The position numbers and the translations under genes are program-made. The notes beneath the pieces were generated by a model, which saw only the letters and a program-made list of their open reading frames with translations, did no database searches and had not been told where the DNA came from. DNA of 64,000 nucleotides from an uncultured Candidatus Rokubacteria bacterium. Its GTDB lineage: Bacteria > Methylomirabilota > Methylomirabilia > Rokubacteriales > CSP1-6. Each line of letters opens with the position of its first letter. Positions within the stretch are counted from its first letter, which is position 1. Below, piece after piece: positions 34,575 through 54,702 of this stretch. The stretch spans positions 53,981-117,980 of the forward strand of contig CAVXJS010000016.1 in the NCBI GenBank assembly GCA_963762145.1. Reading direction: 5' to 3'.

Positions 34575-38115
<3,541 letters not shown>

Positions 38116-47992: not shown

Positions 47993-48679
47993 CTACAGCA
48001 GGTCGCGAAGCGGGACCAGCGCGTAGCCCTGCCGGCGGAGGTCTGCGATGAGCGCCGGCAGGTACTCGACGAGGCGCCGCCCCGCTCCCGGCACGCCGTC
48101 GGCGTCGTGCAGGTCGTAGATGGCGCCGGGGCGGGCTCGGGCGGCGCCGCGGCGCGCCTGCTCGGCGGGAGCCACCGGGCGGCGGCTTTCGGGCTGCACC
48201 GTCCAGAACACGCACGGGGTTTCGAGTCGGCGTAGCGCGCCGAACATGGCGAGGTTGGTCTTGCCCCACGGCGGCCGGAAGAAGCGGGGCGGCGCGCCCG
48301 CGGCCTGCGTGATGGCGGCGTGCCCGTCGCCGATCTCGCGCTCGGTCCGGTCGGGTCCGCAGCGCCAGAGGCTCGCGTGGCTCCAGGTGTGATTGCCCAG
48401 GTCGTGGCCGGCCTCCGCGATGCGACGGGCCACCGCGGGAGCCTGCGCGGCGCGCCGCCCGATCATGAAGAAGGCGGCTCGGACCTCCTCGCGCTCGAGG
48501 ACGTCGAGCACGCGCGGTGTGCACGAAGGATCCGGCCCGTCGTCGAAGGTGAGCGCCACCGCCCGCCGCTCCCGTGATCCGCGCCACACGCTGGCCAGGG
48601 TCAGCAGGTGCGAGCCCCACGTGTAGGCGCCCCAGAAGGCGGGCGCGGCTCCCGCCGCGAGCCAGGCCGCGCGCTTCAC
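47993..48679 (-). CDS. NodB-type polysaccharide deacetylase
   Basis: VALTFDDGP, GNHTWSH, FRPPWG, LHD. Confidence 0.9.
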   Translation of the reverse strand: MKRAAWLAAGAAPAFWGAYTWGSHLLTLASVWRGSRERRAVALTFDDGPDPSCTPRVLDVLEREEVRAAFFMIGRRAAQAPAVARRIAEAGHDLGNHTWSHASLWRCGPDRTEREIGDGHAAITQAAGAPPRFFRPPWGKTNLAMFGALRRLETPCVFWTVQPESRRPVAPAEQARRGAARARPGAIYDLHDADGVPGAGRRLVEYLPALIADLRRQGYALVPLRDLL

Positions 48680-49110
48680 GCCGCCGGCCGCTTGGCCACG
48701 AGCAGGGTGAGGCGGCCGCTCTGCACCACCTCGCCGTGCTGGTTCAGGATGTTGCGCTCCTCCACGACGACACCGCCCTCCTTCATCGAGCGCTTCGCGA
48801 CCGTCTTGGAGACGCTGCGGATCGTGTCGCCCACCCGGGTTGGCTTCAGGAAGCGCCACTCGAAGCCCATGAAGGCGAGCACCACGAGGGGTGGCTGGGG
48901 TACGCGCCAGCCTAGACCGGACGACAGGCAGAGAGGCAGGAGATCGGGGATCGTGCCCGGCGCGCCCGGTCGAGCGCTGCTCAGCGAGGTGAAGAGGGCG
49001 GCGTGCGTCTCGGTGAGCGTCAGGCCGGGCGTCTCGAGAGGCACGCCCGTCTCCACGTCCTCGAAGTAGACCCGGCTGGACGGCTGGCTCGGGGGCAAGG
49101 GCGTGCTCAG
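48676..49110 (-). CDS. MaoC-like hot-dog-fold dehydratase subunit, catalytically degenerate
   Basis: YFEDVETG, TLTETH, WRFLKPTRVGDTI, NQHGEVV; lacks the D-x4-H motif. Confidence 0.8.
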   Translation of the reverse strand: MSTPLPPSQPSSRVYFEDVETGVPLETPGLTLTETHAALFTSLSSARPGAPGTIPDLLPLCLSSGLGWRVPQPPLVVLAFMGFEWRFLKPTRVGDTIRSVSKTVAKRSMKEGGVVVEERNILNQHGEVVQSGRLTLLVAKRPAA

Positions 49111-49559
49111 GACGGCCGGCGGCCCACCAGGTGGTCCGTCTCGCCCTCCTGCACGACCTCGCCGCGCTGGTTGACCACCCGCCGCGCCACCGTGACCACG
49201 CCCCAGCCCGGCTGCTCGCCGTCGAGCTTGGCGGTGACCTGGGCCTCGACGTGGATCGTGTCGCCGATCTTGATCGGCCCCTTGAACTTCCACTTCACCG
49301 CGGCCAGCGGCCCGGTTACCTGGGCGGTGACCACCCGATCGAGCAGGCCCTGCTGGATGGAGAGCCCGAGGAGGCCGTGCGCGATGCGCTCGCCGAACTG
49401 CGAAGCCTTCATGTGCTCGGCGTCGGTGTGCAGCACGTTGTAGTCGCCGCTGAGCCCCGCGAAGATGACCACGTCGGCTTCGGTGACGGTGCGGCCCGGC
49501 GAGATGTACTTCTCGCCGACGGGGATGTCCTCGAAGTAGACGGTCAGATCAGCGCTCAC
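49107..49559 (-). CDS. MaoC family (R)-specific enoyl-CoA hydratase/dehydratase
   Basis: YFED, RTVTEADV, SGDYNVLH, IAHG. Confidence 0.9.
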   Translation of the reverse strand: MSADLTVYFEDIPVGEKYISPGRTVTEADVVIFAGLSGDYNVLHTDAEHMKASQFGERIAHGLLGLSIQQGLLDRVVTAQVTGPLAAVKWKFKGPIKIGDTIHVEAQVTAKLDGEQPGWGVVTVARRVVNQRGEVVQEGETDHLVGRRPS

Positions 49560-49626
49560 CGGCCGTTAGGATAGCACGCCGACTCGCCCCGCCTCTCGTG
49601 ACCGGAACGGGTGGGACCGAGGAACC

Positions 49627-49656
49627 TTGACATCTCCGATTCCGGCTACTTAGAAT
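49627..49656 (+). promoter_or_regulatory. Sigma70-type promoter of mqnE-mqnA-mqnC
   Basis: TTGACA (49627-49632), 18 bp, TAGAAT (49651-49656). Confidence 0.8.
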
Positions 49657-49676
49657 CAGACCGACCGGTCGGTCTG
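49657..49676. promoter_or_regulatory. Perfect 20-bp palindromic operator, TetR-type
   Basis: CAGACCGACCGGTCGGTCTG is its own reverse complement and abuts the -10 box. Confidence 0.8.
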
Positions 49677-49700
49677 GCTAACTCGAGCATGGAGGGATCA

Positions 49701-50804
49701 ATGGCCGTCGCGACGCCCGCTCCACCCCGACTCCGCGATCCCGTGCTGCAGCCGATCTGGGAGAAGGTCCAGGCCGGAGAGCGCCTGTCCCGCGAGGATG
49801 GGCTCGCACTCTTCGCCACCGACGATCTTCACGGCGTGGGCCGCATGGCCGACTTCCTCAAGTCCCGCCTCCACGGCGACCAGGTCTTCTTCGTGCTCAA
49901 CCGATACATCAACCCGACCAACGTATGTGTGCTCTCCTGCAGCTTCTGTGACTTCGCCCGCAAGAAGGGCGAGGAGGGCGCGTTCGAGAATTCCATCGAG
50001 GACGTGCTCAACATGATCAAGCCGGGCACCCGCGAGGCGCACATCGTGGGCGGCCACCACCCGGACTGGCCCTTCGAGTATTTCGAGCGGTTGATCGAGT
50101 CCATCCACCACGCGCGGCCGGAGACCCAGATCAAGGCCTTCACCGCGGCCGAGATCGACTACTTCTGGCGGCGCTGGAAGATCGAGCCGGTGGAGGCCCT
50201 GACCCGCCTCAAGAAGGCGGGGCTCCATTCGATGCCCGGGGGCGGCGCGGAGATCTTCTCCCGCCGGCTGCAGAAGCTGCTCCACTTCACCGGCAAGGCG
50301 GATGCCGATCGCTGGTGCGAGATCCATGGCATCGCCCATTCGCTCGGGATCAAGACCAACGCGACGATGCTGTACGGGCACGTGGAGACCCTGGAGGAGC
50401 GAGTGGACCACCTGATCCGGCTGCGGGAGCAGCAGGACAAGTCGGGCGGCTTCATCACCTTCATCCCGCTCTCCTACCAGACCGGGACCACCAAGCTGGT
50501 GCCGCGGCAGACCCCGCCCACCGACGATCTCCGGACCATCGCCGCCTCCCGGCTCATGCTCGACAACTTCCCGCACATCGAGGCCTACTGGGTGATGATC
50601 GGCGAGGCGACCGCCTCGCTCGCGCTCCACTTCGGCGCGTCCGACGTCAACGGGACGCTCGAGGACGAGAAGATCGCCCACATGGCCCAGGCCGCGAGTC
50701 CGGCAGGCCTCGCCACCGAGCAGATCCTCAGGATGGTCCGGGACGCGGGCAAGATTCCCGTCGAGCGTGACGCGCTCTACAACGTCGTGAAGGTGTGGAG
50801 CTGA
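49701..50804 (+). CDS. mqnE: Aminofutalosine synthase (radical SAM)
   Basis: INPTNVCVLSCSFC, HIVGG, KAFTAAEI, MPGGGAEIF, NATMLYGH, AYW. Confidence 0.92.
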   Translation: MAVATPAPPRLRDPVLQPIWEKVQAGERLSREDGLALFATDDLHGVGRMADFLKSRLHGDQVFFVLNRYINPTNVCVLSCSFCDFARKKGEEGAFENSIEDVLNMIKPGTREAHIVGGHHPDWPFEYFERLIESIHHARPETQIKAFTAAEIDYFWRRWKIEPVEALTRLKKAGLHSMPGGGAEIFSRRLQKLLHFTGKADADRWCEIHGIAHSLGIKTNATMLYGHVETLEERVDHLIRLREQQDKSGGFITFIPLSYQTGTTKLVPRQTPPTDDLRTIAASRLMLDNFPHIEAYWVMIGEATASLALHFGASDVNGTLEDEKIAHMAQAASPAGLATEQILRMVRDAGKIPVERDALYNVVKVWS

Positions 50805-50806
50805 GC

Positions 50807-51553
50807 ATGCTGCGCGTGGGCCGCATCCCCTATCTCAACTGCGAGCCGTTCTTCCACCGGCTGACCGGCGTGGAGCTGGTGGATCTGATCCCGCGCCGGC
50901 TCGGAGAGGCCATGGCGGCGGGCGCGCTCGACGCGGGGCCTCTCTCGCTGATGGACTACCTCCGGATCGAATCCGAGCTGACGCCCCTGCCCTACGGCAT
51001 CGGGTGCCCCACCGGTGCGCGCAGCGTGCTCGTCTTCTCCGAGCAGCCGTTGTCCGGCCTGCGAGGCGCCCGGGTCGGCATCACCGGCGAGACCTCGACC
51101 TCGGTCGAGCTGCTCCGGGTCCTCCTGGCGCTCCGCTACGAGGTCGAGCCCGCCGCGTGGGTCACCGCGGAGGAGCCCTGCGACGCCCAGCTCCTGATCG
51201 GCGATCAAGCGATCCGACGACTCACCGGAGGCCCGCCGGCCCGGCACGTGACCGACCTGGGGCTCGAGTGGCGCGCGTGGACGGGCCTGCCGTTCGTTTT
51301 CGCTCGGTGGGCGGTGGCGTCCCGGCTGCCCATCCGGGAGCGTCGTGCGTTCGAGCACGCGCTCGACGCCGCGCTCGCGCGCGGGATGGCCGCGCTGCCG
51401 GAGATCGCCGCGACCAGGGGCGACCTGGGCTGGACCGCCGCGCAGGTCGAATCGTACCTCCGCAACTTCGCCTTCCGGCTCGGCCCGGACGAGGAGAAGG
51501 GTGCCGCGGAGTTCGTGAGGATGCGCGCGCAGCTCGGGCCTCTGCCGTGCTGA
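50807..51553 (+). CDS. mqnA: Chorismate dehydratase
   Basis: RVGRIPYLN, TSTSVEL, LLIGD, DLGLEW, TGLPFVFARW. Confidence 0.92.
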   Translation: MLRVGRIPYLNCEPFFHRLTGVELVDLIPRRLGEAMAAGALDAGPLSLMDYLRIESELTPLPYGIGCPTGARSVLVFSEQPLSGLRGARVGITGETSTSVELLRVLLALRYEVEPAAWVTAEEPCDAQLLIGDQAIRRLTGGPPARHVTDLGLEWRAWTGLPFVFARWAVASRLPIRERRAFEHALDAALARGMAALPEIAATRGDLGWTAAQVESYLRNFAFRLGPDEEKGAAEFVRMRAQLGPLPC

Positions 51554-52620
51554 GCCGCATCCGGGCCAAGGCGGAAGCGGGGACGCGCCTCGATCGCGCG
51601 GACGGACTCTGGCTCCTCACCGAGGCGGCCCTGCTCGACCTGGGCAGCGTGGCCCAGGAGGCGCGCTTCCGCCGCATCCCGGAGCGGCGGGTCACGTTCG
51701 TCATCGACACGAATCCGAACTACACGAACGTGTGCATCACCGACTGCCAGTTCTGCGCCTTCTACCGGCGACCCGGAGACAAGGAGGCCTACACCCTGAC
51801 CGTCGACCAGGTGCTCGAGAAGGTCGGGTTCGCGGCGCGCGAGGGCGCGACCACCGTGCTGCTGCAGGGCGGCCACAATCCGGCCCTGCCGATGGACTAC
51901 TACCTCGAGCTCGTGCGCGAGACGCGGCGGCGCTTCCCGTCGGTGACCCCGCACTTCTTCAGCGCCTCCGAGATCCGCACGATGTCGGACGTGGCCGGCA
52001 AGCCGGTCCCGGAGGTGCTGGCCCTGCTCAAGCAGGCCGGGCAGACGAGCATTCCGGGCGGCGGCGCCGAGGTGCTCTCCGACCGGGTGCGCAAGCGCAT
52101 CGAGCCCAAGAAGGGCGGGCCGGGCGCGTGGCTCGAGGTACATCGCGAGGCGCACCGCCAGGGCTTCAAGTCCACCGCCACCATGATGTACGGCCACGTC
52201 GAGCAGCCGGAGGACATCCTCGACCATCTCGACGCGATCCGGGAGCTTCAAGATCAGCACGGCGGCTTCACCGCTTTCGTGCCGTGGTCCTTCAAGCCGG
52301 GCAACACCCTGCTCGAGAAGTGGATCAAGCAATACAAGGGCCCGAACGCCTACCTGCGGATGCTGGCGGTCTCACGGCTCTACCTGGACAATTTCCCCCA
52401 CGTGCAGGCCTCGTGGTTCTCCGAGGGGAAGCGGACCGGCCAGGTGGCGCTGTCGTGGGGCGCGGACGATTTCGGCGGAACCCTCTTCGAGGAGAACGTG
52501 CACGCGGCGGCCGACTACGTCAACAAGACGACCGTTGAAGAGATCATGACCCTGATCCGTGATGCGGGCTTCACCCCCGCCCAGCGCACCACCGACTACG
52601 ATATTCTCAAGACCTACTGA
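51547..52620 (+). CDS. mqnC: Cyclic dehypoxanthinyl futalosine synthase (radical SAM)
   Basis: NYTNVCITDCQFCAFYR, LLQGG, PGGGAE, TATMMYGH, QASW, GADDFG, EENV. Confidence 0.93.
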   Translation: MLSRIRAKAEAGTRLDRADGLWLLTEAALLDLGSVAQEARFRRIPERRVTFVIDTNPNYTNVCITDCQFCAFYRRPGDKEAYTLTVDQVLEKVGFAAREGATTVLLQGGHNPALPMDYYLELVRETRRRFPSVTPHFFSASEIRTMSDVAGKPVPEVLALLKQAGQTSIPGGGAEVLSDRVRKRIEPKKGGPGAWLEVHREAHRQGFKSTATMMYGHVEQPEDILDHLDAIRELQDQHGGFTAFVPWSFKPGNTLLEKWIKQYKGPNAYLRMLAVSRLYLDNFPHVQASWFSEGKRTGQVALSWGADDFGGTLFEENVHAAADYVNKTTVEEIMTLIRDAGFTPAQRTTDYDILKTY

Positions 52621-52658
52621 TCAGGGCTCAGGACCTACCGGCCTGGGCTCGGGACCGG

Positions 52659-53483
52659 CTAGATCGGGTCCACCGGCGGCATCGACTTGATCAGGCCCCG
52701 CGCGTGCGCCATCTCGTAGAGGCGAGTCAAGGCGGCCCGGCCGTCGTCGCCGAGCCGCTTGGTGTAGTCGTTGACATACATCAGGACGAACCGGCGGCAG
52801 GTCTCCTTGTCGATCCCGCGCCCGTAGCGCATCGCGTACTCGATCGCCTCGTCCACGTTGGCGTAGGCGTAGTCGATCGCGTCGCGCAGCCCCTGGGAGA
52901 TCGCGCGGTGGGTCGCCTCGCCCAGGTCCCGCCTCATCACGTTGATGCCCAGCGGCAGCGGGAGGCCGGACTCCTTCTGCCACTCCTCTCCCATGTCGAG
53001 CACCTTGTGGAGGCCCATGCTCTGGTGCGTGATCTGGCCCTCGTGGATCAGCAGGCCCAGATCCGCCTGCCCTTCGAGGACGACCTTGGGGATCTTGTCG
53101 AAGGCGACCTCGATGGTCGGCGGGTCGCCCACGTAGAGGCGCAGCAGGAGGGCGGCGGTGGTGTGGCTGCCCGGAATGGCGACCACCTTCTGCTCGAGCT
53201 GGTCGCGGGGGATCGGCTCCTTCGCGACGAGGATCGGCCCGTAGCCCTTCCCCATGGACGCGCCGGGATCCATCATCCGGTACTGCTCGTGCACCAGCGT
53301 GTAGGTCGCGGCGGACACCGCGGTGACCTCGAGCTCGCCGGTGCGGGCGCGCCGGTTCAGCGATTCGATGTCCTCCAGCACGTGCTCGACCTCGATACCC
53401 GGGATCTTCACCTTCCCCGCGTTGAGCGCGTAGAACATGAAGGCGTCGTCGGGATCAGGGCTGTGTCCGATGCGGATCAGCAT
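52659..53483 (-). CDS. mqnD: 1,4-dihydroxy-6-naphthoate synthase
   Basis: GHSPDPDDAFMFY, DIESLN, GKGYGP, LLIHEG, LPLPLG, MYVN; GGAGG SD. Confidence 0.93.
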   Translation of the reverse strand: MLIRIGHSPDPDDAFMFYALNAGKVKIPGIEVEHVLEDIESLNRRARTGELEVTAVSAATYTLVHEQYRMMDPGASMGKGYGPILVAKEPIPRDQLEQKVVAIPGSHTTAALLLRLYVGDPPTIEVAFDKIPKVVLEGQADLGLLIHEGQITHQSMGLHKVLDMGEEWQKESGLPLPLGINVMRRDLGEATHRAISQGLRDAIDYAYANVDEAIEYAMRYGRGIDKETCRRFVLMYVNDYTKRLGDDGRAALTRLYEMAHARGLIKSMPPVDPI

Positions 53484-53502
53484 GCGACCTCCTGCGATAC
53501 GG

Positions 53503-53538
53503 GCTGCGGTATGAGCTGCGGTCTGTGCTGCCGTCTGG
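53503..53538. repeat. Three imperfect 12-bp tandem repeats in the mqnD/TetR intergenic region
   Basis: GCTGCGGTATGA GCTGCGGTCTGT GCTGCCGTCTGG. Confidence 0.6.
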
Positions 53539-53557
53539 GCCTCGCCGTGAGTCGTCA

Positions 53558-54139
53558 ATGACGAAGCCGGCGACGCGCGACAAGATTCTCCAGGCGGCGC
53601 TCGAGGTCTTCGCGGAGAAAGGGTATCACAGGGCCCTGGTGGACGACATCGTGCGGGCGTCCCGCACGTCGAAGGGCGCCGTGTACCACCACTTCCCGAA
53701 CAAGGAAGCGCTCTTCCTGGCCCTGGTCGACGAATTCTCGGCCCGGCTGGCGGAGGCGGTGGCCGCGAGCATCGCGGGCGCGCACGGTGGGCTCTGCAAG
53801 GTCCAGGCCGCCCTCACCGCGGGGCTCGAGACCTTCGCCCGCCACCGAGAGCTCGCCCGGATCCTGCTCCTCGAGTCGGTGAGCCTGGGGCCCGCGTACC
53901 AGAGCAAGCGGCTCGAAGTGCACGGGCGCTTCGCGACGCTGATCCAGGCCTATCTCGACGACGCGGTGGCGGAGGGCTCGATCCCGCCGCAGGACACGCG
54001 GGTGGCCACCCTGGCGTGGCTGGGGGCGGTCAACGAGGTGGTGATCCAGTGGCTCTACAGCGGACGGCCGGACCTGATGACCGAGGCGGTGCCCGCGCTG
54101 ACCCCGCTCCTGCTCCGCAGTATCGGCGCGGCTCAGTAA
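53558..54139 (+). CDS. TetR/AcrR family transcriptional regulator
   Basis: TRDKILQAALEVFAEKGY...SKGAVYHHFPNKEALF HTH. Confidence 0.95.
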   Translation: MTKPATRDKILQAALEVFAEKGYHRALVDDIVRASRTSKGAVYHHFPNKEALFLALVDEFSARLAEAVAASIAGAHGGLCKVQAALTAGLETFARHRELARILLLESVSLGPAYQSKRLEVHGRFATLIQAYLDDAVAEGSIPPQDTRVATLAWLGAVNEVVIQWLYSGRPDLMTEAVPALTPLLLRSIGAAQ

Positions 54140-54702
54140 CCGGCCCGCGCGCGGGCGAACCGGATCCTGAAGTCCCCCGCCTTGATGGCGCGCAGGATCG
54201 AGTCGGCGTCTCGTTCGGCCTCGACCTCGACCCACGCCCGTCCGAAATCCTCGTCGCGATGACCGTCGTCCGTGGCGACCTTGGGGAGTCGGATGGCCTC
54301 CACGTCGTACTCGGGCTGGTACACCCCGGTATCGGTGATCTCGACCGCGTGAATCGGCATCCCGTCGCGCGTGATCGTGCGGATCCGGCGCAGCGTCTGG
54401 TCCACCGTCAGCGCGTAGCGGGCGGGGTGATTCAGGATGTAGAGCGTCTCGCGGTCGCCGGTCACCTTGCCCACGTGCTGGCCCAATGGGCGGTAGTCGA
54501 TCTCGACCCCGGGGAGCACGAGCATCCGGTCGTCGCCGGACGGGATCTGAAACCAGTAGTCCTCGTGGATGCGGTCGTCGTGATCGGTGATGGCGAGAAA
54601 GTCGTATCCCAGCTCGCGGTAGCGGGCGATGACCTCGTCGATCGGCCGGCGGCCGTCCGAGAAGGTGGTATGCGTGTGGAGATTGCCCTTCAGGAGGGGC
54701 AT
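54133..54702 (-). CDS. PHP-domain metallohydrolase
   Basis: KGNLHTHTTFSDG, YDFLAITDHD, NHP, TDDGH. Confidence 0.88.
   Translation of the reverse strand: MPLLKGNLHTHTTFSDGRRPIDEVIARYRELGYDFLAITDHDDRIHEDYWFQIPSGDDRMLVLPGVEIDYRPLGQHVGKVTGDRETLYILNHPARYALTVDQTLRRIRTITRDGMPIHAVEITDTGVYQPEYDVEAIRLPKVATDDGHRDEDFGRAWVEVEAERDADSILRAIKAGDFRIRFARARAGY

Follow-up and report, generated by a model that had tools for sequence, protein, structure and literature searches.

A TetR-family regulator and a palindromic site at the mqnE promoter as a probable repressor-operator pair for menaquinone synthesis

A TetR-family regulator encoded beside the futalosine-pathway genes of an uncultured Candidatus Rokubacteria bacterium, together with a palindromic site at the mqnE promoter, most likely represents a conserved repressor-operator pair that, judging from sequence comparison, would serve both pathways of menaquinone synthesis. 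Regulator and site form a conserved unit, and elsewhere the site precedes the TetR gene itself, leading a menaquinone operon. The presence of the pair across several phyla points to a so far undescribed switch of menaquinone genes. In the mechanism that we propose, the TetR protein (53558-54139) would bind the inverted repeat AGACCGAC-CG-GTCGGTCT as a dimer. The repeat lies right after the -10 hexamer of mqnE, over the inferred transcription start, and the bound protein would block transcription of mqnE-mqnA-mqnC, the genes for the opening steps of menaquinone synthesis by the futalosine route. Its hold on the DNA would be altered by a small-molecule ligand. We consider this ligand-modulated repression by a dimer on the mqnE-promoter repeat quite probable. 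Binding, its dimeric form and any ligand are what we infer, and it is because of the position of the site that we propose repression rather than activation.

The mqn locus and its palindrome

The window, i.e., the whole stretch of DNA that was analysed (64,000 nucleotides), comes from a soil bacterium. The features of the locus are as follows.

49627..49632, plus strand: -35 hexamer TTGACA of the mqnE promoter (sequence read and promoter scan)
49651..49656, plus strand: -10 hexamer TAGAAT of the mqnE promoter (spacer to the -35 hexamer of 18 nt)
49657..49676, no strand: putative operator, perfect 20-bp palindrome CAGACCGACCGGTCGGTCTG (sequence read and palindrome scan)
49691..49696, plus strand: mqnE ribosome-binding site GGAGGG (direct read of the sequence)
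49701..50804, plus strand: mqnE, aminofutalosine synthase, radical SAM (TIGR03700, 445.5 bits, cut-off 434.55)
50795..51553, plus strand: mqnA, chorismate dehydratase (PF02621, E 1.9e-48)
51556..52620, plus strand: mqnC, cyclic dehypoxanthinyl futalosine synthase (TIGR03699, 454.8 bits, cut-off 428.1)
52659..53483, minus strand: mqnD, 1,4-dihydroxy-6-naphthoate synthase (PF02621, E 2.6e-74)
53558..54139, plus strand: TetR-family regulator of 193 aa, proposed operator binder (PF00440, TetR_C_24)

MqnE and MqnC both exceed the curated equivalog cut-offs. MqnA and MqnD are two distinct PF02621 proteins, neither of them with an NCBIfam match; the nearest solved chain to MqnA is the chorismate dehydratase SCO4506 (E 3e-31), and MqnD is closest to the Thermus MqnD TTHA1568 (E 5e-62) and is encoded in a frame with a third-codon G+C of 0.92. 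The start codon of mqnC is not fixed, the family match starting near 51586. The original prediction placed a TetR gene at the far end of the mqn cluster. The gene is real, but mqnD lies on the minus strand, convergent with mqnC. TetR and mqnD thus point away from each other, and the cluster does not run co-directionally up to TetR. The position 49611, from which the feature had been drawn, is simply that of the earliest GTG in the open frame.

The near-consensus promoter TTGACA-18-TAGAAT that had been described upstream of mqnE was found at 49627-49656 both by direct reading and by the promoter scan, with agreement at 11 of the 12 consensus positions, and was the single promoter-like site in 49000-54400 (shuffled sequences average 0.3). 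A search of sequencing runs for expression data yielded only small shares, with two rows recorded as RNA. The palindrome scan likewise recovered the perfect 20-bp palindrome said to follow it over the expected start: it begins directly after the -10 hexamer, spans the inferred transcription start and ends 24 bp before mqnE, whose ATG is at 49701. Within the palindrome, the 18 bp at 49658-49675 form the conserved core, AGACYGAC-NN-GTCRGTCT.

In DNA of 70% G+C, chance alone could produce such a palindrome. There are two perfect 20-bp palindromes in the window and 79 of at least 20 bp in the genome. When the window was simulated 100 times with a first-order Markov model, 32 of the copies contained at least one of 20 bp. 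Since this test was not significant, the palindrome alone has been dropped as an argument, and the evidence is comparative. With no mismatch allowed, the 14-mer core occurs once in the genome; with two allowed, the scan was uninformative (94 matches vs 70 for the reversed control) and was replaced by one with the stricter 18-mer, scored out of 16. The mqnE palindrome was then the sole 16/16 match in the genome and the sole site of at least 14/16 outside coding sequence. All other sites at that threshold fell within coding sequence, and no further regulon members were found in this genome; no such site was present at the late-pathway decarboxylase gene (contig C23), nor was one of the regulator's own found in the short mqnD-TetR spacer.

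The TetR protein carries an N-terminal helix-turn-helix (PF00440, E 7.8e-19, residues 21-67 of the 204-aa frame). Its model has nine helices (pLDDT 90.3, pTM 0.81) in an all-helical, two-domain TetR-type fold. Against the PDB it gave 431 matches at E <=0.001, and the top ones among the matches listed were TetR-family regulators, with FadR, FasR and PfmR the nearest folds.

Regulator and site within the order and in other phyla

All the genomes compared were metagenome-assembled, none of them from a cultured organism. In the 20 loci fetched from relatives the TetR gene adjoined mqnD divergently in every case. The repeat followed the -10 hexamer in the window and in all 19 relative loci that included mqnE, while the flanks differed; a single base was changed in the right arm at one locus (L059). 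Among 183 genomes of the order, TetR was found in 61, MqnE in 147 and the exact pattern GACYGACNNGTCRGTYT in 70 (the reversed control gave 12 hits). TetR and site co-occur: both were present in 54 genomes, TetR only in 7, the site only in 16 and neither in 106. The site was thus carried by 54/61 genomes with TetR vs 16/122 without, being absent in 106 of the latter, a table that overstates significance because the relatives are not independent.

Most of the seven genomes with TetR and without the pattern were contigs ending before the 5' region of mqnE (five cases), and the other two had a variant site of 13 or 14 out of 16. The 16 with the pattern and without TetR comprised five contig ends, one in which the site precedes a second, unrelated TetR, six unclassed cases and four in which the TetR gene was deleted or truncated (G058, G115, G166, G038). 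These last four fit a recent loss of the regulator, and another protein could also be using the site in them.

The best site before mqnE scored between 13 and 16 in all 37 deduplicated loci with a full TetR (27 at 16, 3 at 15, 6 at 14 and 1 at 13), i.e., the palindrome was conserved where the regulator was retained. In 24 loci where TetR was absent, part of them hand-picked, partly by the presence or absence of the pattern, the scores were 10 or less in 13, 12 in five, 13 in two, 14 in three and 15 in one. In a sample of 41 genomes we inspected all ten that have MqnE but no TetR orthologue. The site scored 12/16 or less in nine of them, being a half-deleted remnant in G028, and 14/16 in one (G038). 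For two of these nine, L095 and L100, the contig ends before the expected TetR place, and absence rests on a whole-genome search. The TTGACA/TAGAAT promoter was kept in many of the TetR-less loci. After loss of TetR, the mqnE promoter stays while the palindrome decays.

Homologues of the regulator, 36-61% identical, were found in Chloroflexota, Nitrospinota, Acidobacteriota and other phyla, with AGACYGAC-NN-GTCRGTCT directly upstream of their own gene. They head classical (menF-menD-menB, menB-menA), futalosine (mqn) or late (ubiD-ubiA-ubiX) operons. In Rokubacteria, unlike these homologues, the gene has no site of its own and lies 3.9 kb from the mqnE site. Among the 80 best TetR relatives (80 species genomes, 796,235 bases) there were 71 sites of at least 14/16, compared with 5, 5 and 1 in scrambled controls, and 70 of the 71 were directly upstream of mqnE or the TetR gene. 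One locus had no site (L203) and another only a variant with a shorter spacer (L195). The gene context of 79 loci was classed, with examples named by family models, as follows.

Rokubacteria-type mqn loci: 37 of 79
TetR-menF-menD(-menB): 23 of 79
TetR followed by an ABC importer, several adjoining ubiA or ubiD: 8 of 79
TetR-mqn: 3 of 79
TetR-ubiD-ubiA(-ubiX): 3 of 79
TetR-menB-menA: 1 of 79
Other or too short: 4 of 79

In 34 of 70 sites the two arms were unlike each other, and in 45 of 70 CA/TG stood at the centre, a pattern to be expected if a protein recognises the site but not if it forms an RNA hairpin. The claim that this TetR represses the mqn genes is thus backed by co-occurrence, by site decay and by the same site in other phyla, and remains a prediction from comparative data. 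Its supposed dedication to the futalosine pathway does not agree with the classical men operons that it heads in other phyla; the mqn-linked TetR family is not specific to the futalosine pathway.

Known regulators and alternative explanations

The closest known systems are TetR-family regulators of other pathways. PfmR (TTHB023) of Thermus thermophilus HB8 is a repressor of phenylacetate and fatty-acid genes, with the consensus site 5'-TACCGACCGNTNGGTN-3' (the site from an excerpt of PMC7022988, which quotes Agari et al. 2012); the consensus given in the original prediction matches this quotation, and the mqnE site agrees with it at 13 of 14 specified positions. PfmR shares with the protein described here the TetR family and, as we suppose here, repression at promoters, and its structure 3vpr is among the best matches by sequence (E 4e-13) and by fold (TM 0.74). 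However, the identity is only about 26%, the outer site bases are AGAC here and TAC in PfmR, and PfmR targets, besides its own operon, acyl-CoA and phenylacetate genes instead of menaquinone genes. PaaR (BCAL0210) of Burkholderia cenocepacia is a TetR-type repressor of phenylacetate catabolism that has ACCGACCGGTCGGT as the inverted repeat of the paaA promoter, where its mutation relieved repression (PMC2770484, in excerpt). Comparing the operators, not the proteins, this 14-mer is identical to the core of the mqnE site, although in Burkholderia the repeat lies between -35 and -10 before paa genes, and here it follows the -10 before mqnE. The top sequence match was FadR (YsiA type) of Bacillus halodurans and B. 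subtilis (5gp9, E 7e-14). By fold, 5gp9, 5gpa and 5gpc gave TM 0.82-0.87, with 3whb and 6o6p also matching, and FadR and the Mycobacterium tuberculosis FasR, both acyl-CoA-sensing, belong to the same domain family TetR_C_24. Identities were 20-29%, operators and regulons are different, and the scores stay far below the equivalog cut-offs (66.5 vs 200 bits for FadR, 67.6 vs 330 for FasR). Nor is the regulon one of fatty-acid or phenylacetate degradation as in FadR and PfmR, the site preceding mqnE, TetR-men, TetR-mqn and TetR-ubiDAX. The resemblance to PfmR is real in operator core, sequence and fold, but does not establish the protein as an orthologue of PfmR or PaaR.

Such shared cores raise the question of whether the palindrome serves another regulator, either a second TetR or a PaaR/PfmR-like protein, with the neighbouring TetR having its targets elsewhere. 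A second TetR, unrelated to the mqn-linked one, is in fact encoded in the same genome (contig C9, upstream of a gene for an ECF sigma factor), and its conserved site TGTACCGAC-NN-GTCGGTACA has the same inner 14 bp as the mqnE site, so that cross-binding is possible. The exact 14-mer of the PaaR operator (PMC2770484, in excerpt) and the retention of the mqnE site in the four genomes without an intact neighbouring TetR speak in the same direction. Yet the second TetR is present in six of the ten TetR-less genomes with MqnE (G027, G028, G029, G032, G034, G038), five of which have a decayed mqnE site or none at all, while in G019, G026 and G030 the site is kept and the second TetR was not found. 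The two types of sites also show consistent differences in their three outer bases. In a quick tree (SH-aLRT support, midpoint root, every third Rokubacteria row and every fourth second-TetR row) the second TetR is a remote outgroup on a branch with 100% support, and the mqn-linked homologues of other phyla have the AGAC-type site before themselves. We regard this explanation as unlikely.

The site might instead be a PaaR/FadR-type box for a divergent MaoC-like pair (49107-49559 and the gene beyond) of acyl-CoA or phenylacetate metabolism, with mqnE a bystander. A MaoC-like enoyl-CoA hydratase gene does lie next to mqnE, divergently, both here and in many relatives, its top NCBIfam match is the PaaZ hydratase domain (far under cut-off), the operator core is that of the PaaR box, and the TetR protein resembles the acyl-CoA-binding FadR as well as PfmR. 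Against this, the site abuts the mqnE -10 and is about 100 bp from the MaoC start; in six loci of the genus about 3.5 kb separate MaoC from mqnE, and the site remains at mqnE; TetR-less relatives retain the divergent layout without the site; and the men, mqn and ubiDAX operons that follow the site in other phyla contain no MaoC gene. No PaaA over the family cut-off was found in the genome (135 vs 280 bits, in an assembly 88% complete), on which ground a PaaR regulon was rejected, and no paa genes were seen beside TetR in the loci searched with a query set that contained no paa proteins. This makes the MaoC-like pair a very improbable target. The notion that the palindrome is a chance product of G+C-rich DNA, or an RNA element (hairpin or riboswitch) of the mqnE leader, draws on how common perfect palindromes are in the window and its simulated copies, and is hardly credible, since across phyla the site is conserved at one and the same position while its flanks diverge. 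The changes in the arms are not compensatory and the left arm is mostly upstream of the inferred transcription start. The riboswitch or hairpin was rejected because the leader had no match in Rfam beyond a chance-level hit and, from the inferred start, folded no better than shuffles (z +1.83).

Possible ligand and significance

Our literature search turned up, in the excerpts that it returned, no dedicated transcription factor for the classical or the futalosine route, and for the 14-mers of the site only the Burkholderia PaaR operator. Papers on tetrathionate (PMC4746308), tetrahydropterin (PMC5445326) and SinR (PMC12692220) shared no more than words with the subject and were set aside. Allosteric feedback on MenD by 1,4-dihydroxy-2-naphthoate regulates menaquinone synthesis (PMC9835592, in excerpt) and likewise controls entry into it, but at the level of the enzyme and for the classical pathway only, whereas the TetR described here would act on transcription in both.

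Menaquinone (vitamin K2), an essential cofactor of respiration, is the main or sole respiratory quinone of very many bacteria, and its synthesis by the futalosine route is also under study as a drug target. One and the same pair is found on two non-homologous routes (men and mqn), on late genes and beside an importer. We tentatively suggest that the mqn-linked TetR family might be a sensor of menaquinone supply itself; its ligand should then be independent of the route, and it would be the first known transcription factor to read the menaquinone pool. Candidate ligands are menaquinone, menaquinol or demethylmenaquinone as co-repressor, or alternatively, as inducer, a side-chain precursor, e.g., a long polyprenyl diphosphate that builds up when head groups are scarce. 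Such sensing would fit with the FadR-like fold, which accommodates long hydrophobic tails bearing an anionic head, and with two basic residues, K117 and R124, that are conserved among the homologues (in at least 72 of 79).

The pair offers a simple experimental system of one 193-aa protein and one 18-bp site, and might be used as a part of biosensors for metabolites related to menaquinone. The regulator has been lost repeatedly and its site has then decayed, a clean natural example of a one-operator regulon dissolving. The repressor and its operator would give direct access to the way in which cells set the level of their quinones and, if the sensor reading is true, the late prenylation and decarboxylation genes and the linked importer would also be under the control of this pair.

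The mqnE promoter and its proposed operator

The futalosine-pathway menaquinone genes (mqn) of the window are preceded by a sigma-70-like promoter that matches 11/12 consensus positions and was the sole one found by the promoter scan of 49000-54400. Direct reading bore out the original prediction that a TTGACA-18-TAGAAT promoter upstream of mqnE runs straight into the perfect palindrome CAGACCGACCGGTCGGTCTG. The same prediction had placed mqnD on the plus strand, which is wrong; the gene lies on the minus strand, and the TetR gene is therefore its divergent neighbor.

Features of the mqn locus (positions in the window)
49107-49559, strand opposite to mqnE: MaoC-like hydratase gene, upstream of mqnE
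49627-49632, plus strand: -35 element TTGACA, from sequence reading
49651-49656: -10 element TAGAAT, 18 nt after TTGACA, from sequence reading
49657-49676: perfect palindrome CAGACCGACCGGTCGGTCTG, directly after TAGAAT
49691-49696: GGAGGG, followed by the ATG at 49701
49701-50804, plus strand: mqnE (TIGR03700, 445.5 bits, cut-off 434.55)
50795-51553, plus strand: mqnA (PF02621; nearest, SCO4506 chorismate dehydratase)
to 52620, plus strand: mqnC (TIGR03699, 454.8 bits, cut-off 428.1)
52659-53483, minus strand: mqnD (third-codon G+C 0.92; PF02621, E 2.6e-74; nearest, TTHA1568)
53558-54139, plus strand: TetR-family regulator, 193 aa (PF00440)

The palindrome on its own is not beyond chance. The genome (6.26 Mb in 25 contigs, 88% complete) has 79 perfect palindromes of at least 20 bp, and at least one was present in 32 of 100 Markov-simulated windows. 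The window holds two of 20 bp, the other being CGGCGCGCGATCGCGCGCCG at 37147-37166. The longest of the assembly, 28 T followed by 28 A at C14:2710, may be an assembly artefact. It is the position of the mqnE palindrome that stands out, and this can be weighed through comparison alone. The exact 14-mer core occurs once in the genome, while ACCGAC-NN-GTCGGT has seven matches, two of them intergenic: the mqnE site, and another that precedes a second TetR gene, on contig C9. The scan of this genome for the operator gave no intergenic site other than that of mqnE. Such a palindrome was not found in the 74-bp spacer between mqnD and the TetR gene, and in Rokubacteria neither of these two genes had an operator of its own.

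The nearest solved relatives of the TetR by sequence are FadR of Bacillus halodurans (5gp9, E 7e-14) and PfmR of Thermus (3vpr, E 4e-13), with FadR of Bacillus subtilis also among the best. A model built from 37 homologues (pLDDT 90.3) is closest in fold to FadR structures (TM 0.82-0.87), then to FasR and PfmR, and the protein reaches no equivalog cut-off in NCBIfam. The PfmR consensus named in the original prediction is confirmed in print (PMC7022988). In Burkholderia cenocepacia the 14-mer serves, base for base, as the operator of PaaR (PMC2770484), the sole role in which we met the 14-mers of the site in the literature covered, which takes in few subscription journals or regulon databases. 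The core is thus read by several TetR proteins whose relationship is distant or absent, and the 14-mer core by itself assigns no regulon. No PaaA reached the cut-off in the 88% complete genome.

Conservation of the site and its decay after loss of the regulator

All the relatives in the Rokubacteria sampling are metagenome-assembled. Of the 41 genomes sampled, 25 have a TetR orthologue (54-96% identical), and the linkage to mqn genes that had been proposed held in 20/20 fetched loci, where the TetR gene adjoins and diverges from mqnD. The 19 loci that reach mqnE all have the order mqnE-(mqnA)-mqnC, mqnD on the opposite strand and TetR. In these same 19 loci, as in the window, the inverted repeat follows the mqnE -10 element while the flanking bases differ; it is kept upstream of mqnE in all 37 deduplicated loci with a full TetR, scoring 13-16 out of 16 against AGACYGAC-NN-GTCRGTCT. 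We considered control of the MaoC gene by the site and find it unlikely. This gene is the divergent neighbor of mqnE in some loci and lies about 3.5 kb off in six of the genus, and under either placement the repeat stays with mqnE.

The scan was extended to 183 genomes of the order, with TetR in 61 and MqnE in 147; the regulator is thus accessory. The exact pattern GACYGACNNGTCRGTYT was present in 70 of the 183 (12 hits for the reversed control), divided between 54 of the 61 genomes with TetR (absent in 7) and 16 of the 122 without it (absent in 106), counts that are not independent since the genomes are related by descent, and whose P value is accordingly given no weight. G048, flagged as unpublished, enters these counts only as one of the genomes with MqnE and neither TetR nor pattern. 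Five of the seven exceptions with TetR have contigs ending before the mqnE 5′ region, and two have variant sites (13 and 14/16). The 16 TetR-less genomes with the pattern comprise five contig ends, one site before the second TetR, four in which the TetR gene is gone or reduced to some 30 codons with the site still good, and six left unsorted, about the number predicted by the reversed control. Since nearly all carriers have one site per genome, and the genome of the window has no second intergenic site, the Rokubacteria regulon appears to be the single mqnE operator.

Ten of the 41 sampled genomes have MqnE without a TetR orthologue. In these ten loci, all fetched, the best score before mqnE was at most 12/16 in nine and 14 in one; in two of the nine the contig stops before the place of the TetR, whose absence there rests on the whole-genome search. 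In one of these genomes (G028) the bases after TAGAAT resemble the repeat minus one arm. Four TetR-less genomes of one genus (L093, L094, L096 and L099) retain beside mqnD a short piece from the 5′ end of the TetR gene, followed by a common junction sequence containing GTTATCCACTTATCCACC, which suggests one ancestral insertion or deletion, perhaps a mobile-element end; three of these genomes have a decayed repeat. We added a decay series of 20 further loci of the same family lacking TetR and pattern, hand-picked and not random. TetR-less loci often retain TTGACA and TAGAAT, and the bases that follow range from near-intact to unrecognizable. The distribution of scores is what would be expected were the site kept only alongside the regulator. 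Two further loci with the TetR heading the operon have the site before the TetR gene instead of mqnE.

Site scores in deduplicated loci with an assembled mqnE 5′ region (matches out of 16, number of loci in brackets)
Full TetR, 37 loci: 16 (27), 15 (3), 14 (6), 13 (1)
TetR remnant, 3 loci: 15, 15, 16
TetR absent, 24 loci: 9-10 (13), 12 (5), 13 (2), 14 (3), 15 (1)
Not classable, 11 loci: no score given

The mqnE site might instead be used by the second TetR through cross-binding. This protein (218 aa; locus C9:859613-860960, L003/L104, with relatives L105-L133) is encoded just ahead of an ECF sigma factor gene. A conserved site of its own, TGTACCGAC-NN-GTCGGTACA, follows the promoter TTGACA-17-TACTAT; a strict pattern was found in 17 of 30 fetched loci, most others having one base changed and two being clipped at extraction in the site region. 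The two genes look like an autoregulated operon. The site of the second TetR has the same inner 14 bp as the mqnE site, but the outer three bases differ; in one genome (G027) it has AGAC-type outer bases. The second TetR is present in six of the ten TetR-less genomes with MqnE, five of which have lost the mqnE site or have it decayed, and was not found in three genomes keeping that site. Given this, and its place as a remote outgroup in a quick tree, the second TetR probably does not use the mqnE site, though some cross-binding may occur.

Two neighborhoods deserve mention. A tandem pair of MaoC-like hot-dog genes (48676-49559, minus strand) lies close to mqnE across most of the order, usually divergent from it, and is kept also where TetR and site are absent. 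Hot-dog proteins include a thioesterase of the classical menaquinone route, and we know of no role for them in the futalosine route. A PHP-domain gene (54133-54702, minus strand, 189 aa) is beside mqnD throughout the order and co-directional with it; the TetR gene lies between the two in antisense orientation, at a distance of only 26-105 bp from the start of mqnD, and in TetR-less relatives the PHP gene directly adjoins mqnD. This raises two questions: whether mqnD expression needs transcripts that read through the antisense TetR gene, and whether the PHP protein takes part in the pathway.

Homologues in other phyla

One genome per species was scanned with eight aligned orthologues as query, which gave 517 relatives, of which the best 80 were kept. 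Within these best 80 of 517 we found 71 sites of at least 14/16 in 796,235 bases (5, 5 and 1 with scrambled controls), 70 of them directly upstream of mqnE in Rokubacteria or of the TetR gene in other phyla, and in 45 of the 70 a TAnnnT hexamer ends 0-6 nt before the site. Ten of the 80 loci had no such site; the expected place was off the contig or locus in seven, one scored 13/16, one (L195) had a palindrome variant whose spacer is shorter, and one (L203) had none. The homologues from outside Rokubacteria among the best 80 of 517 are 36-61% identical and come, per record title, from Chloroflexota (mostly Anaerolineae), SAR202, Nitrospinota, Acidobacteriota, Bipolaricaulota and Sysuimicrobiota. 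Five loci of Rokubacteria or Chloroflexota type (L138, L135, L139, L176 and L213) carry unrelated taxon labels (archaeon, acidobacterium, cyanobacterium, alphaproteobacterium), probably wrong labels or misbinned contigs.

Genes downstream in 79 of the best 80 loci (classed by tblastn; examples named by Pfam and NCBIfam; one locus with a TetR piece of <150 aa left out)
Rokubacteria-type mqn, site before mqnE: 37
menF-menD(-menB): 23
SsuA/NMT1-type ABC importer, several beside ubiA or ubiD: 8
mqn genes: 3
ubiD-ubiA(-ubiX): 3
menB-menA: 1
Other or too short: 4

For the classical pathway (men), MenD (TIGR00173, 460 bits), MenB (TIGR01929, 407 bits) and isochorismate synthase (TIGR00543, 354 bits) were all above cut-off in the menF-menD example L175; the ubiD-ubiA example L212 has a menaquinone-type decarboxylase (TIGR03701, 606 bits, cut-off 495.9). 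In eight Anaerolineae-type loci (L169, L182, L185, L188, L189, L191, L193 and L210) site and TetR lead the SsuA/NMT1-type importer. In the quick tree (midpoint root, SH-aLRT support alone, rows thinned) the types of operon are intermixed, eight groups requiring 13 changes against a minimum of 7, and the menaquinone-linked TetRs form one clade against the second TetR with 100% support.

Proposed mode of action

The arms are unequal in 34 of the 70 sites and the center is CA/TG in 45 of 70. Since arms differ elsewhere, the sites as a group are an 8+2+8 repeat, of which the fully symmetric 20 bp in the window are a special case, and such independent half-sites would suit binding by a protein dimer rather than an RNA stem. 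The possibility of an RNA stem was rejected on these non-matching arms, on an Rfam search with no family beyond a chance-level match, and on a leader that folds, from the inferred start, no better than its shuffles. Judging by the protein family and the symmetry of the site, a TetR dimer would most likely sit on the repeat, which starts one base after the -10 element and covers the inferred start. RNA polymerase would thereby be kept from transcribing mqnE-mqnA-mqnC, repression being suggested by the position of the site, and a ligand would shift the balance of TetR on DNA. Tentatively, and with more doubt than confidence, a signal independent of the route would be the most economical reading of this ligand, because the family appears to serve two unrelated pathways as well as late steps and an importer; the quinone itself or polyprenyl diphosphate would be candidates. 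Head-group intermediates, chorismate or CoA thioesters, the last belonging to the classical route only, may act as ligands instead.

We found no TetR or other transcription factor dedicated to menaquinone synthesis described in the literature covered, subscription journals and regulon databases being mostly outside it. TetR repressors that act through palindromic operators are well known as a class; what would be new, as far as seen in that literature, is the regulon together with its occurrence on both menaquinone pathways and in several phyla.
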